Positions 9,933 to 38,100 of a stretch of DNA of 40,957 bases are shown one piece after another (position 1 is the stretch's first letter; each line of letters opens with the position of its first letter). The stretch lies in the NCBI GenBank assembly GCA_052055015.1, contig JBQJIT010000049.1; one strand, given 5' to 3'. The notes beneath the pieces were generated by a model. That model did not search any database and was not told the DNA's origin. It worked only from the letters and a program-made list of their open reading frames with translations. The position numbers and the translations under genes are program-made. Origin of the DNA: Malassezia furfur (Eukaryota).

Positions 9933-12900
9933 CTAGTCGAGTCCGTCCTGCGTCACAAGCGCAATCATCGCACGCACCACTTGCTGGTTCGCGGGCGTGT
10001 ACAGTGCGTGGGCGTCCTCGACGCCCTGCTCGAGCGTCAGACTCAACAGCTGCCGCAGCTGGCGGCACAGGATGCCGATGCGTGCACTCGCCTTCATCTT
10101 GATCCATGCATCGGGGCCCGCCTCGCCGGACGTGGCAATTGTCAGGCCGCCATGCTCGTGGTCAACGTACAGCGCGCCGCCAAACAGCAGCAGGCCATAC
10201 AGCGGTGCCTCGGTCGCGTCGCGCAGGTAGGTGCGGTGCGTCGTATCGTTTGCACTCTTGCGGCACACCGCGACGTAGTTCGACTTGAACTGCGTCGCGT
10301 GGAACAGCATCGAGCTGGGATGCAGGAACACGCGGCCGTCGTGCTCGTCGATATAGTGCACCTCGCGCGCAACCGCCTCCTTGCGCACCGCACCGGATGA
10401 CGATGCATTGTACTTGGCCGCCGGCTGATCGACCCGCACCACCGACGGCCACAACGACGCGACGAGCAGCGCGCGCAACAGGTTCGTGTTGGTGCTCTGT
10501 GCGTCGAGCATGTGCGTGCCGTTGGCCTTGGGCCACTGCGCACCCTCTGCGCGCCACGTCTGCACATACTCGCGGTCCACAATCCCGAGCTCCTCGAGAC
10601 TCCGCAGGATGGTCGTGCGTGTCATGTCGACATCCTGCAGCGCTGCAAAGGACAGGCCATGCTGGGTGAGTTGCGCAACATACCGTCTCGCACCACGCCT
10701 TGACTTCGCGCAGCGGCTGCCGGTCGCGGCGCATGCCCAGGTACGTGGCATACAGGTGCGCATCGGTCAACAGATCACTGTTGCCCAGCACGTAGGCAGC
10801 GCGCGCTTTGGCTGCCTCCTCGTCGCGCTGTGCGGCGGCCGCGACGATCGAGCGACTGGCCAGCAGTGCGACAATGTGCAACAGCGGTTCCATGCAACCA
10901 AACAAGCTGCCCAGGACCAGCATCTTGCCCTCGCGCACATCCAGCGGAAGATTCGCCTGCGGTCAGTTACACCACGTACCAAGTGCTGCCCCAGCGGGGT
11001 GAGCGGTGCCGCATACCCCTTGCCATCCTGGATCGCGCCCGCCAAGACAAGCTTGCGGTGCGTCGCGGCCAAGGCATCCATCGACGGCGGATCAATGGCA
11101 CGCTCCAAGAAGGCCCGCACGTCGCCGTGCGGCTGAATCGACTTGACCTGCAGTACCACACCCTCGAGCGGCGTGCGCTGCATCTCCGGCACCGACTGTG
11201 CGGCCTGAACATGCTTCTCCACACCTCGCGAATACAGCTTGAAACATTCGCCGGCCATAGTGCGCCCCGCACGACCGGCACGCTGCTTGCATGCCGCACG
11301 CGATGCCCACGTCTCTTGCAGGCGCGTGACGCCGGCTGTCGCATCGTACTGGGCCTCGCGCACGCGACCCGTGTCAACCACGTAGCAAATCTCAGGGATG
11401 GTGATCGATGTCTCTGCCACATTAGTGGACACAACAATCTTGCGCTGGTTGCGCGCGACCGGTTGGAAGACGCGCCGCTGCTCGTTTGGCGCCAAATTGG
11501 CATGCAACGGAAGAACCACCGCACCCTCCAGCTGCAGTGACGCAATTGCATCCATCGCCCGCCGAATCTCACCCACACCGGGGCAGAACACGAGAATCGC
11601 GGCACGACCATGGAGCGTGCCCGTGAAGTCGACCTTCTCGGCGCGCTGCGCGGCCAGTGCCACGGTGCGGGCGAGGAACTCGTAGTCGATGCGCGATGAC
11701 GACACAAGCTGCCTCACGCTAGGTATGAGCGGTTCTGGCACGTTCGTTGCATCAAATAGCCGGTCAACTTTGTCGTTGGGTGTGGTGTGTGGCCGCGCAC
11801 TCTGGTAGTTGGCCAGACACACCACGTCCTCGAGGTAGTGCTCTTGTACGGGGAACGTGCGTCCGGGAATAAACATGTATGGTGCGCCGCCGAAGTACTC
11901 GATAAATGTCTCGGGGTTGATCGTTGCACTCATCAGCACCACGCGTAGCTTAGGGTTCTTTTTCAGGACATCGCGGAGTAGGAGCAGCAAAAAGTCCGAG
12001 TCGGTACTCCGTTCGTGCACCTCGTCGACAATCACATGCGACACACTCTCTAGCGCCGGGTCGCTGCCCGTCGCTAGGCGGCGGAGCAGAACACCCGTCG
12101 TAGAAAAGAGGATCCGACATGCCGACGATGCACGCCGCTCGCCACGGATCGCATAACCGACATTCGCGCCCGCTTCCACGTCGCGGTCAAGCGACTCGCC
12201 ACGCTCCGCAGCGACACGTGCTGCGACACCCATGGCCGAGACACGCCGTGGCTGGGTCACGACAATGCTGCATTCACTGCCACGCCCGTGCTCAATGGCA
12301 TCGTCCAGCAAAAACTGTGGCACTTGTGTCGTCTTACCACACCCTGTTTCGCCGGCAATAAGCACAACTCGGCTCGAACGCACAGCATCGAGCAGCTTTT
12401 GCCGCGCCGCATAGGCAGGAAGCGACTCGCGCACGGGACCGATGCTTTCCTGGTATTTGAGCGAGGCGTGCAGCGACGACAGACGCTCCTGCAACGCTGC
12501 GTCCACTTGTGCATCGCGCTGCAAAGCACGCATGCGCCGCACAGTGCTTGGCTTGTTTTTGCTTGTCGAGGGCACCTGCGACGGCGTTGTTGTCGGCTCC
12601 GCACTGGTACTTGGCGAAGTTTCCACCAAATGCTCCATCACCTCGTCCAATGCCGGCGGTTCGTGTAGCATGCCAGGAAGCACGGCACGCAGCTCTTCCC
12701 AGATCGCAAATAACACACCTTCGCCGCTCTGATGGATGGCGTGTACTTCGCTGGACTTTTCTGCGTCATGCAGACATTGCATAGCATGTCGGGTCAATGC
12801 CAGGCGCAAAAAGGCAGGCAACGTTGTGCCCGTGACATAGATCGATGGAGGGCCCGAGTTGCCAGCAAGGTACGGAGACACGTCGTGGTCAACAAATCGC

Positions 12901-14315
12901 AACACAACCGGTGCGCCCTCGTGCTTTCCCAGCTCGAGTTCATAGTCACTGGGAGTAATCCGCTCACGGTCTGGCAGCGGGCGCACGTCGTCGACGAGTG
13001 CCTCCAGCACCGTGCGCTCATCCGCACGGCGCTGTGCCGCATCACTGCTGGCATCCAGGACATCTGCCTCCCACGCAGGCGCATTCACCAGCCGACGCAG
13101 CAGGACATCCAAAACTGCGCCCTCCCGCTGCGCCAGATTCCATTCAGGATGCTCCGATCGCACCTGTGCCAGAGCCTCGGCTGCAGCGCGCTGGGGGAAG
13201 CCAGCCTGGCGAACCAGTTTCTCGAGCGTCCAGCGATCCACCAGACTCTCTTGGTCGCCTCCCTTTGCTGCACTCGTTACGAACGATTCGGCAGACGCAG
13301 AGGGCCGCAGCGCGGGAGGCAGATCCTGCTCGGGGGTATACAGAACGAGGTATTCGATAGCCGCCTCACGGTCCGGCTGTGCGAGGATCGATGCCAGCAG
13401 GGGATGCGCACGGCGCAGGTTTGCCATAGCCGTTGCGTCCTGGGCCTTGGCGCGCGCCTCTTTCAGCCAGGCGAGCACGCGGCGAATGTAGCCGGGGCGC
13501 ACGCCAAGCTTCGTCAGTTCGCGCTCCAAAGTGGCCGTGTCAAGTCGCGGAGGCTCCACGGAAACTTCCGAAACGGCTCCTGCAAGATCCTCGTCGCGCA
13601 CTTCGTCCATCCGTGCACGAATGGTGGCTTCCACAAGTTCGCGAAGTGCGGGCGACATACGTACCTCCAAGGCACGCTGCCATGCCTTGCTCATAGGCCG
13701 GAGCGATGGGTCGTTCCGCTGTGCTTCGCGGACCTCGCGCTCCTTCTTGCGTGCCTCGCGCTCAGCATCGCGTTTCTGGAGGGCATCAAAAGGATCCGCT
13801 TCCCACTTCCAGCTGTCGCTCGCAGGTGCTTCCGCCTTGACCTTTTCCAGATCAAGCCAGTATTCACGAGGGCCGGGTGGGAGCATGCGATGCATACTCA
13901 GATGATTGTACAGACGGAACAGAACATACGTAGCCGCCCAGTGCTTAGCCTCGAGCGCCGAGGCACATGACAGCCGCGCGCCCTCCTCCGAAGGCTCCAT
14001 TCGCAGGGTATGTGGGTTTGATTTGTCCTGCTTATTTTCCTTGCGCAATGTGATCACACACGAGTATCCATTCTTGTGGTGCCGTGGGCTCACCTCTGGC
14101 TTCTCGAAGCCTGGCATTTTTTGAATCTTCTCGTACATCAGGTTCAGCGGCGTTTTTGATCCAGGCGGAAAGAGTTGTGCAGTGCCATCTTCGCGCACAG
14201 CCGTCTTGGGAGGAGGCTTGGGACCACCTCCCTTCACCCAGTCAGGTAGCGGCGCCGCCTTGGACGACGTCGCGCCGCTCGACTTGATCGCCGCGCTGCT
14301 CTTCTTGCGCGCCAT
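9933..14315 (-). CDS. DEAH-box RNA helicase, DHX57/DHX29/YLR419W(Ucp12)-like (1445 aa, 2 introns)
   Basis: Motifs GETGCGKTTQ, TQPRRVSA, DEVHERS, MSAT, STNVAETSITI and QRAGRAGR. Removing intron 10957-10979 (23 nt) restores LTPLGQHL/ANLPLDVREGKML. Removing intron 10662-10683 (22 nt) restores WCET/HGLS. The spliced length is a multiple of 3. Confidence 0.92.
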
Positions 14316-14345
14316 GGTGAATCGGGAGGATCGGGCTACTCCACA

Positions 14346-37452: not shown

Positions 37453-37574
37453 GGTCGGAAAAAGCTCGATTGTGCACACGGCACAGAGTATTTTGCTTAT
37501 TCAGCGAAACCAGCGCTCGCACGACCGCTGAGTCAGCAAGAGTAGCACGGACGTGGCACCTGTGAACATCGATC

Positions 37575-38100
37575 ATGAGCACTGTGAAAGGACCTGCGCC
37601 CGCGCCCAGCTCGTTCCCCGGTTCCGAGAAGCTGTGCATCGGCATCGTGCATGCACGATGGAACAAGGAGATCATCGATGCGCTCGTGGCGGGCGCTGTG
37701 CAGTCGCTGCAAAAGGCCGGGGTACCGACCGAGAACATTCTGATCGAGTCCGTGCCGGGCAGCTGGGAGCTGCCCGCGGGCTGCCAGATGTACGTGGCTG
37801 CCAACTGACCCCAGCATGCTCGACAAGAAGCCGGTTGATGCAGTGATTGCGATTGGATGCCTCATCAAGGGCTCGACGATGCACTTTGAGTACATATGCG
37901 ACTGTGCCACGCACGGTCTCATGCGCCTCGGCCTCGAGACCAAACGCCCCGTGGTCCTCGGTGTGCTCACGGTGCTAAACGATGACCAGGGACTCGAGCG
38001 TGCGGGCATTGGCCGCAACGGCAAGCCCGGGCACAACCACGGCGAGGACTGGGGCTTTGCCGCCGTCGAGATGGCGCTCAAGAGCCAAGGAAAAATGTAG
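37575..38100 (+). CDS. RIB4: 6,7-dimethyl-8-ribityllumazine synthase (166 aa, 1 intron)
   Basis: [32 protein letters not shown] and [14 protein letters not shown]. Intron at 37790-37814 (25 nt). Confidence 0.97.

Follow-up and report, generated by a model that had tools for sequence, protein, structure and literature searches.

Near-minimal canonical GT-AG introns of 21 to 37 nucleotides in eleven genes of a Malassezia contig

The window analyzed here, a stretch of 40,957 nucleotides (nt) from Malassezia furfur (contig JBQJIT010000049.1 of GenBank assembly GCA_052055015.1), is fungal nuclear DNA in which a motif scan combined with splice models places 26 GT-AG introns in 11 genes, between positions 10662 and 37814. 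Ten of these introns interrupt the gene for an SNF2 ATPase (Irc5/HELLS-like), whose relatives are labelled IRC5 or 'proliferation associated SNF2-like' in source records, and three lie in RFA3; the genes for a DHX29-like DEAH-box helicase (DHX), She9, ATP synthase subunit e and CBP20 hold two each, and a single intron is found in each of RAD3, acetyl-CoA synthetase (ACS), NAC beta, RIB4 and a gene of 328 codons upstream of SNF2. The lengths are 21 nt (two introns), 22 (seven), 23 (four), 24, 25, 26 and 27 (two each), 30, 33, 35 (two) and 37 nt, with a mean of 25.5, a median of 23.5 and a mode of 22 (n = 26). All of them thus fall within the range of a few tens of nucleotides, mostly under about 40, that typifies the very short introns of this genus. 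The initial annotation had arrived at the same 26 introns: its length list was reproduced identically from a first intron at 10662–10683 to a last at 37790–37814, and the three examples that it gave (18393–18413, 18712–18732 and 20562–20583) are correct in both coordinates and sequence.

To place these introns among relatives, we scanned metagenome contigs with RAD3, which returned 11 loci, five of them syntenic and Malassezia-like and representing three or four species; the relatives group as L001/L007 with L003, as L005 alone, and as L002/L004. These loci cover 25 of the 26 intron sites. Each window intron is given below with what occupies its site in the relatives, where a length denotes an intron at the site and "adjacent" means that 0 extra nt separate the flanking codons.

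10662–10683, minus strand: DEAH-box (DHX29-like) helicase intron 2, 22 nt, phase 0, GTATGTTGCGCAACTCACCCAG, frame-shifting; adjacent in L004 and L005.
10957–10979, minus strand: DEAH-box helicase intron 1, 23 nt, phase 0, frame-shifting; adjacent in L004 and L005.
17294–17318, minus strand: SNF2 intron 10, 25 nt, phase 0, donor GTTCGT; adjacent in L002/L004.
17567–17589, minus strand: SNF2 intron 9, 23 nt, phase 1; only the split codon between the flanks in L002/L004.
17630–17653, minus strand: SNF2 intron 8, 24 nt, phase 0, stopless if retained, splits IFSQ/FTTMLD; adjacent in L002/L004.
17869–17892, minus strand: SNF2 intron 7, 24 nt, phase 1, stopless if retained; one uninterrupted tblastn segment in L004.
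18291–18312, minus strand: SNF2 intron 6, 22 nt, phase 2, junction FEQW/FNF; uninterrupted in L004.
18393–18413, minus strand: SNF2 intron 5, 21 nt, phase 0, GTATGCAGAGTACTGACCCAG, splits LTGTPLH/NNLAELW; adjacent in L002/L004.
18481–18507, minus strand: SNF2 intron 4, 27 nt, phase 2; split codon only in L002/L004.
18712–18732, minus strand: SNF2 intron 3, 21 nt, phase 2, GTACGCGTGCCTCTAATTCAG, in-frame stop if retained; 26-nt GT-AG intron in L002/L004.
18850–18875, minus strand: SNF2 intron 2, 26 nt, phase 2, splits DEMGL/GKT; 24 nt in L002/L004.
19172–19193, minus strand: SNF2 intron 1, 22 nt, phase 0, in-frame stop 9 nt in if retained; 24-nt GT-AG intron in L004, directly before the homologous RVRKLD.
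20084–20109, minus strand: intron of the 328-residue upstream gene, 26 nt, phase 2; 23 nt in L004, 46 nt in L005, split codon only in L001, L003 and L007.
20562–20583, plus strand: RAD3/XPD intron, 22 nt, phase 0, GTACGTCGCTTGCCTCACGCAG; 24 nt in L002/L004, 116 nt in L011, adjacent in L001, L003, L005, L007, L009 and L010.
26844–26865, minus strand: She9/Mdm33 intron 2, 22 nt, phase 1; split codon only in L001, L002, L003, L004 and L005.
27220–27241, minus strand: She9/Mdm33 intron 1, 22 nt, phase 1; 25 nt in L004, uninterrupted in L001, L003 and L005.
27696–27718, plus strand: RFA3 (RPA 14-kDa subunit) intron 1, 23 nt, phase 0; an intron in all relatives (26 nt in L001, 26 in L003, 25 in L002/L004, 50 in L005), with differing sequences.
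27785–27817, plus strand: RFA3 intron 2, 33 nt, phase 0, in-frame stop if retained; 38 nt in L001 and L003, 27 in L002/L004, 58 in L005.
27921–27947, plus strand: RFA3 intron 3, 27 nt, phase 1; 29 nt in L001 and L003, 24 in L002/L004, 48 in L005.
30871–30905, plus strand: ACS 3'-terminal intron, 35 nt, phase 0; 23 nt in L004, 47 in L001 and L003, 70 in L005.
31055–31091, minus strand: ATP synthase subunit e intron 2, 37 nt, phase 1; 24 nt in L004, 54 in L001, 51 in L003, 72 in L005.
31285–31319, minus strand: ATP synthase subunit e intron 1, 35 nt, phase 0; 33 nt in L002/L004, 41 in L005, adjacent in L001 and L003.
31817–31846, plus strand: NAC beta (EGD1/BTF3-like) intron, 30 nt, phase 1; 26 nt in L002/L004, 35 in L001, 37 in L003.
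32656–32677, minus strand: CBP20 (nuclear cap-binding subunit 2) intron 2, 22 nt, phase 2, splits GFAFVE/FYTH; 23 nt in L002/L004, 28 in L001 and L003.
32898–32920, minus strand: CBP20 intron 1, 23 nt, phase 1, splits PSSY/RDSR; 23 nt in L002/L004.
37790–37814, plus strand: lumazine synthase (RIB4) intron, 25 nt, phase 2, frame-shifting, stop 18 nt in if retained; the sole site of the 26 that no relative locus covers.

Removal of the introns restores both reading frames and conserved motifs, as had been claimed for them at the outset. All 11 spliced coding sequences translate without an internal stop to a terminal stop codon, among them the DHX open reading frame (ORF), which runs uninterrupted for 1445 residues, and splicing rejoins DEMGL/GKT, LTGTPLH/NNL and IFSQ/FTT in SNF2 as well as PSSY/RDSR and GFAFVE/FYTH in CBP20. 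Retention of an intron would shift the frame in 18 of the 26 cases; the remaining eight have lengths divisible by three, and two of these contain an in-frame stop.

Every junction was checked independently of frame, 25 against homologues or relatives and the remaining one by continuity of a Pfam profile. At nine of its ten junctions the spliced SNF2 protein runs collinear with 23 full-length homologues, taken as those of at least 580 residues among the 150 matches listed. The first junction falls in the N-terminus, where homologues are too variable for a collinearity check; the region around intron 7 also varies among distant homologues, and intron 5 is collinear with every homologue that covers it. 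A second comparison comes from P0278, a protein of 699 residues from the assembly of a public run, which matches the spliced SNF2 protein, from residue 10 onward to its C-terminus, at 693 of 699 residues; the alignment is free of internal gaps and thus has none at any of the nine junctions from intron 2 to intron 10. A single 2,152-nt contig encodes P0278. In the window the matching span takes up 2,313 nt when the nine introns are counted and 2,100 nt once they are removed; the contig is too short to hold the nine introns and must therefore lack them. It is most simply the transcript of a near-identical strain. For CBP20, the spliced protein of 240 residues is gap-free at both junctions against 11 of 12 named homologues, the exception being a Malassezia obtusa record (P0159) with a 7-residue insertion exactly at each of the two junctions, which is what reading through introns of 21 nt would produce. 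Over the whole alignment, CBP20 is 97% identical to the protein of M. brasiliensis, 94% to that of M. obtusa, 83% to that of M. vespertilionis and 77% to that of M. nana; to judge from sequence, the window species is a Malassezia of the furfur-related group.

Pfam profiles provide a further view of the junctions. The 91-codon DHX exon between the two introns of that gene matches HA2_C only in the spliced frame (E value 3.8e-7), and the She9_MDM33 match covers profile positions 45–160, the last of them in exon 2, and resumes at position 162 in exon 3. Match positions likewise fit the junctions in RFA3, and the ATP-synt_E match begins at profile position 12 with the first residue of exon 2 of ATP synthase subunit e. 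In NAC beta, exon 1 stops at position 38 of the 57-position NAC profile, and reading through the intron would place a 10-residue insertion within it. For RIB4, the DMRL_synthase match runs from position 2 to 53 through the last residue of exon 1 and from 57 to 136 starting at residue 3 of exon 2, and this step from 53 to 57 fits a split codon plus two residues.

Short insertions that break a reading frame could in principle be assembly indels, frameshift errors or signs of pseudogene decay, although nothing specific speaks for such an origin here. All 26 interruptions begin with GT, carry G at position +5, contain a CTNAY motif whose adenosine lies 5–8 nt from the end and terminate in YAG; at 15 of them, independently assembled relatives have an intron of another length, and splicing yields intact proteins that align collinearly with their homologues. 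An origin through error or decay is thus very improbable and can be regarded as effectively refuted.

The relatives also differ from the window in which sites are occupied. A GT-AG intron at the same codon is present in at least one relative at 15 sites, where it differs in sequence and in length (23–116 nt) from that of the window. At 12 sites one or more relatives have the two flanking codons side by side, namely at eight of the sites occupied only in the window and at the sites of the RAD3 intron, the upstream-gene intron, She9 intron 1 and ATP synthase subunit e intron 1; at two further SNF2 sites (18291 and 17869) the relative aligns across the junction as one continuous segment, with small gaps close by. 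Ten introns are found only in the window: both DHX introns, SNF2 introns 4–10 and She9 intron 2 (26844).

These window-only introns, up to ten of the 26, might be recent gains specific to this lineage rather than old introns lost in the relatives. The ten sites are intron-free in every relative examined, including the apparent sister L004, with the She9 intron at 26844 absent in all four relative species and both DHX introns absent in L004 and L005. Since the window groups with L004 in the RAD3 tree, a history of loss would have to invoke at least two independent events for DHX and She9. That node, however, has only moderate support (90/92) in a tree whose root is left open, and all ten introns lie 3' of introns that L004 has kept (SNF2 introns 1–3 and She9 intron 1), a position that fits 3'-biased loss in the relatives mediated by complementary DNA; differences in presence and absence affect 10 of the 26 introns, in a pattern that is equally that of such loss. 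In addition, the SNF2 record of M. psittaci (P0279) has a large internal gap that spans the whole stretch from SNF2 junction 106 to junction 262 and terminates exactly at the latter, the intron 6 junction, hinting that at least one window-only intron exists in another species. Ustilaginomycotina, moreover, have been described as lineages of massive intron loss (PMC8476143). By eye, the introns share no similarity beyond their splice signals, with linkers of 4–17 nt that are too short for formal comparison. Taken together, these observations make recent gain an improbable account of the window-only introns.

Where sites are shared, intron length tracks the relative considered. The following medians compare each relative with the window at their shared sites (GC, guanine plus cytosine content of the locus).

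L004: GC 0.62, 15 shared sites, median 24 nt (23–33), window median at these sites 26 nt.
L001: GC 0.51, 7 shared sites, median 35 nt, window median at these sites 30 nt.
L003: GC 0.51, 7 shared sites, median 37 nt, window median at these sites 30 nt.
L005: GC 0.52, 7 shared sites, median 50 nt, window median at these sites 33 nt.

Minimal introns are thus common to the GC-rich pair formed by the window (GC 0.63) and L004, whose medians of 24–26 nt contrast with the 35–50 nt of the low-GC relatives; introns of the latter are about twice as long.

The 26 introns share one anatomy. All begin with GT and end with AG, and the 5' splice site follows the consensus GTAYGT, with A at +3 in 22 introns, C or T at +4 in 25, G at +5 in all 26 and T at +6 in 20. 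This consensus is of the type able to pair with U1 and U6, as judged from the consensus itself rather than from the small nuclear RNAs of the window species. A CTNAY branch-site motif is present in every intron (CTGAC in 10, CTTAC in 5, CTCAC in 4, CTAAT in 3, CTCAT in 2, and CTGAT and CTTAT in 1 each), and the predicted branch adenosine lies 5 nt from the intron 3' end in 17 introns, 6 nt in six, 7 nt in one and 8 nt in two. The acceptor is YAG throughout and CAG in 24, and there is no room for a polypyrimidine tract between branch motif and acceptor. A fungal precedent for this short branch-acceptor distance is Yarrowia lipolytica, in which the branch site abuts the acceptor and a polypyrimidine tract is missing; its introns are overall much longer, with only the 3' part compressed. 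The linker from the 5' hexamer to the branch heptamer measures 4–17 nt (median 6) and is 4 nt in both 21-nt introns, which accordingly add up as 6 nt for the 5' site, 4 nt for the linker, 7 nt for the branch site and 4 nt from there to the 3' end.

On these grounds we consider the 26 elements to be very probably ordinary, constitutively spliced U2-type GT-AG introns of Malassezia that have shrunk to little beyond their three recognition elements, a class assignment drawn from GT-AG ends, the extended 5' consensus, the branch motif, and the frame and homologue collinearity gained on removal. Each intron comprises a GTAYGT 5' site, a linker of 4–17 nt, an NNCTNAY branch motif and a YAG acceptor, with the presumed branch adenosine 5–8 nt (mostly exactly 5) from the 3' end and no polypyrimidine tract. 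The standard machinery would probably excise them, with U1 and U6 pairing at the 5' site and U2 at CTNAY, the first AG downstream of the branch site probably serving as acceptor, and recognition presumably proceeding by intron definition. A linker of 4 nt may be the shortest with which both the 5' splice site and the branch helix can still be brought to the catalytic center, and this would set the floor of 21 nt; such a floor, like the fixed spacing of 5 nt, hints at steric limits. The small size itself would be a clade-wide outcome of genome compaction in Malassezia and not a peculiarity of the window species.

A stronger proposal, raised in the initial annotation, is that splicing in this organism or its clade relies on a spliceosome with special adaptations to very small lariats, for example through altered or lost U2AF/Mud2, SF1 or SF3b components, or through recognition of 5' site, branch and acceptor as one composite of about 21 nt; such adaptation would add to the interpretation as ordinary introns and replace no part of it. 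Yeast and human spliceosomes reportedly need several tens of nucleotides between the 5' site and the branch point, and in 15 of the 26 introns the 5' hexamer and branch heptamer lie only 4–6 nt apart, while the branch adenosine in 17 sits 5 nt from the 3' end with no polypyrimidine room and micro-exons of 24–40 nt occur between such introns. On the other side, the splice signals are fully canonical, the content of the window says nothing on spliceosome composition, and the same gene sites hold introns of 41–72 nt in L005 and 23–33 nt in L004, so that one conserved machinery appears to cover this range within the genus. In the literature searched, which left most subscription journals outside, we found no paper tying Malassezia to a modified spliceosome and no study of Malassezia intron minimality or splice architecture. 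Special adaptation is, in our view, unlikely. The most far-reaching version holds that in the GC-rich Malassezia clade 21 nt is a hard physical floor, that recognition has been modified to read a composite element without U2AF/Mud2, and that minimal introns are still being gained; its premise is that U1 and U2 small nuclear ribonucleoproteins could not both bind a 21-nt intron as they do in yeast and human models, which would call for a modified route. We regard this version, too, as doubtful. Were its floor and modified recognition real, a culturable and transformable fungus would become the most tractable model of minimal-intron splicing.

Several observations weigh against the interpretation of these elements as ordinary introns and bound its reach. 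First, a loose intron motif is not enriched in the window, with 53 hits of at most 37 nt compared with 44.6 ± 7.3 in 200 block-wise dinucleotide shuffles; the motif alone is consequently no evidence, and the 26 are set apart by frame, homology and relatives. Second, one of the 27 hits that are not introns (a few of which are nested alternative donors of true introns) is an in-frame false positive, at 26440–26466 in She9. Third, the branch points are predictions from the CTNAY motif and not mapped sites. Fourth, six of the 26 introns (18481–18507, 18393–18413, 17869–17892, 17630–17653, 27921–27947 and 31817–31846) have lengths divisible by three and no stop, which makes their retention invisible in the reading frame, and the case for them accordingly rests on homologue collinearity and on relatives. 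Fifth, the P0278 contig is taken as transcript rather than genomic DNA from its size only. Finally, the relatives are metagenome contigs, and for SNF2 the comparison draws on one relative species. As an observation in its own right, retention of the six stopless introns would add 7–10 residues without triggering nonsense-mediated decay.

The She9 false positive is instructive about the motif. It is a 27-nt element on the minus strand, GTGCGCACCTACCTGCCCTTTACACAG, in frame and stopless, and it is coding: read-through is collinear with four relatives, and splicing it out would remove nine residues of conserved length. The initial annotation had left this element out of its list. It could in principle be an alternative splice, and as a perfect-looking motif in coding DNA it illustrates how easily such motifs arise. 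A second rejected candidate, the 26-mer GTACGTCGATGTCCGGCTGACGACAG at 23027–23052 on the minus strand, lies between RAD3 and EF3, on the non-coding strand of the spacer that separates the stop codon of the former from the start of the latter, and fits no gene model; it could be a chance occurrence or part of an antisense transcript outside the annotation. For ATP synthase subunit e intron 2, an alternative in-frame 25-nt intron with its acceptor at 31067 was set aside because it has no branch motif and fits the proteins of relatives less well. An ORF-bridging scan of all GT..AG pairs yielded 2,522 candidates, for the most part chance pairs that lie in frame within GC-rich ORFs. Filtering reduced these to 105, among which the true introns stood out, while short exons were missed. 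A codon-usage frame track was too noisy for intron placement.

Interpreted as ordinary introns, the 26 have close counterparts within the genus. In M. sympodialis ATCC 42132, 5,350 introns with a mean of 30 base pairs (bp) have been annotated, 5,271 of them (99%) with RNA sequencing support, under an intron size range set at 10–2000 bp (Zhu et al. 2017, PMC5389616). The window introns are somewhat shorter (mean 25.5 nt), and the window species is nearest M. brasiliensis and M. obtusa, not M. sympodialis; the sections of that report available to us give no modal length, splice-signal architecture or branch-acceptor distance. The 2,150 introns of M. restricta KCTC 27527 average 37.2 bp with a median of 30.0 bp (PMC9241646), the latter about 6 nt above the window median. 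Annotations of M. restricta and M. arunalokei used gene prediction with a minimum intron length of 15–20 (PMC6473144), a setting which implies that annotators expected introns of this kind, and a review terms Malassezia introns 'very short' (PMC7426719).

Outside the fungi, the same length class is represented by the tiny introns of ciliates, with 21–29 nt (average about 24) in Nyctotherus ovalis and 20–33 nt in Paramecium tetraurelia, and by those of a chlorarachniophyte nucleomorph, which at 18 nt were the shortest introns then known (PMC2633312). These introns resemble those of the window in length, in their GT-AG ends and in positions that are conserved between relatives while sequences are not (PMC2633312). 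In contrast, they belong to unrelated eukaryotes, are AT-rich and are without the yeast-like CTNAY motif of the window introns. The tiny introns of ciliates also avoid stopless lengths divisible by three (PMC2633312), a signature not seen among the window introns, where such lengths account for six of 26 in what is a small sample.

The comparison with relatives determines how much of this is new. The part of the initial annotation that described genuine, canonical, tiny GT-AG introns whose removal restores motifs and frames stands. Its suggestion of novelty is not supported, for relatives already have comparably short introns, which is largely the outcome that it had itself named as removing the novelty: introns of the apparent sister L004 are equally small (median 24 nt), the insertions in the M. 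obtusa record match what 21-nt introns would give if read through, and short lengths are published for M. sympodialis and M. restricta. The window is thus an instance of a well-documented genus trait at its lower extreme, with a clear architecture, and does not represent a new type of system; the discovery is a modest one, genus-wide intron shortness being already in print. What it adds is the description of a near-minimal fungal intron: GTAYGT, at least 4 nt, NNCTNAY, and an acceptor 5 nt past the adenosine.

Introns of this size also have practical consequences, as gene finders and read aligners fail on them at default settings. This is apparently how P0159 of M. obtusa and P0279 of M. psittaci came to be mis-modelled. 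Annotation or mapping of RNA sequencing reads in the furfur clade should therefore allow introns down to about 20 nt and check those with lengths divisible by three, which give no frame signal. Malassezia can moreover be cultured and transformed (PMC7426719), making the lower limit of intron length testable by experiment, which is hard in ciliates or nucleomorphs.

The genes of the window are, from left to right, as follows.

2–6529, minus strand: midasin, before the intron-bearing region.
Plus strand: TRAPPC11-like gene, before the intron-bearing region.
9933–14315, minus strand: DHX29-like DEAH helicase.
Minus strand: Sec2.
16856–19217, minus strand: SNF2 ATPase (Irc5/HELLS-like).
19261–20273, minus strand: upstream gene of 328 residues, without a name.
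Plus strand: RAD3/XPD.
Plus strand: EF3.
Minus strand: She9/Mdm33.
Plus strand: RFA3.
Plus strand: DUF4604.
Plus strand: acetyl-CoA synthetase.
Minus strand: ATP synthase subunit e.
Plus strand: NAC beta.
Minus strand: CBP20.
Plus strand: CDC123.
Minus strand: class II tRNA synthetase.
Minus strand: ECH_2 hydrolase.
Plus strand: lumazine synthase (RIB4).
Minus strand: Mrp51.
Minus strand: coatomer alpha C-terminus.

The ten window genes other than the 11 with introns have plausible start codons in single ORFs and give no sign of an intron in the coding region, with small 5' exons being possible.

The upstream gene and SNF2 form a tight tandem. We considered whether the 328-residue ORF (20273–19261) might be joined to SNF2 by an intron and found no credible GT/GC-AG intron that would do so. 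The two are separate genes, as indicated by this lack of a joining intron, by relatives that have the upstream gene without SNF2 and by a stand-alone homologue of 330 residues in M. psittaci, which is also the best match of the upstream gene among named species. The stop codon of the upstream gene (19261–19263) lies 43 nt ahead of the SNF2 ATG (19217) and 7 nt ahead of an in-frame ATG at 19253, so close that the two transcripts must overlap or be read through, and L004 (8530–8700) has both genes in the same tight tandem. M. sympodialis likewise has tightly packed genes with overlapping untranslated regions (PMC5389616). SNF2 is present at this site in the window and in L002/L004 and is absent from the syntenic site of L001, L003, L005 and L007 (three species), where Sec2 directly adjoins the upstream gene; within those lineages, for which the syntenic site is what the loci cover, the gene could have been lost or moved.

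Very short exons accompany the short introns. A micro-exon of 40 nt in SNF2 (17590–17629) is enclosed by introns of 24 and 23 nt, and three genes open with a coding micro-exon (19194–19217, 24 nt; 31320–31349, 30 nt; 32921–32960, 40 nt) that is followed by an intron of 22–35 nt. Base composition is also unevenly distributed, as GC steps from 0.54–0.63 in the core (10000–38000) to 0.70–0.73 in the flanks, that is in the first 10 kb (1–10000) and the last 3 kb (38000–40957). All 26 introns fall in the core, and the flank genes midasin, TRAPPC11, Mrp51 and coatomer alpha are without a coding-region intron; SNF2 is both the gene of lowest GC (about 0.55) and the one with the most introns (10).

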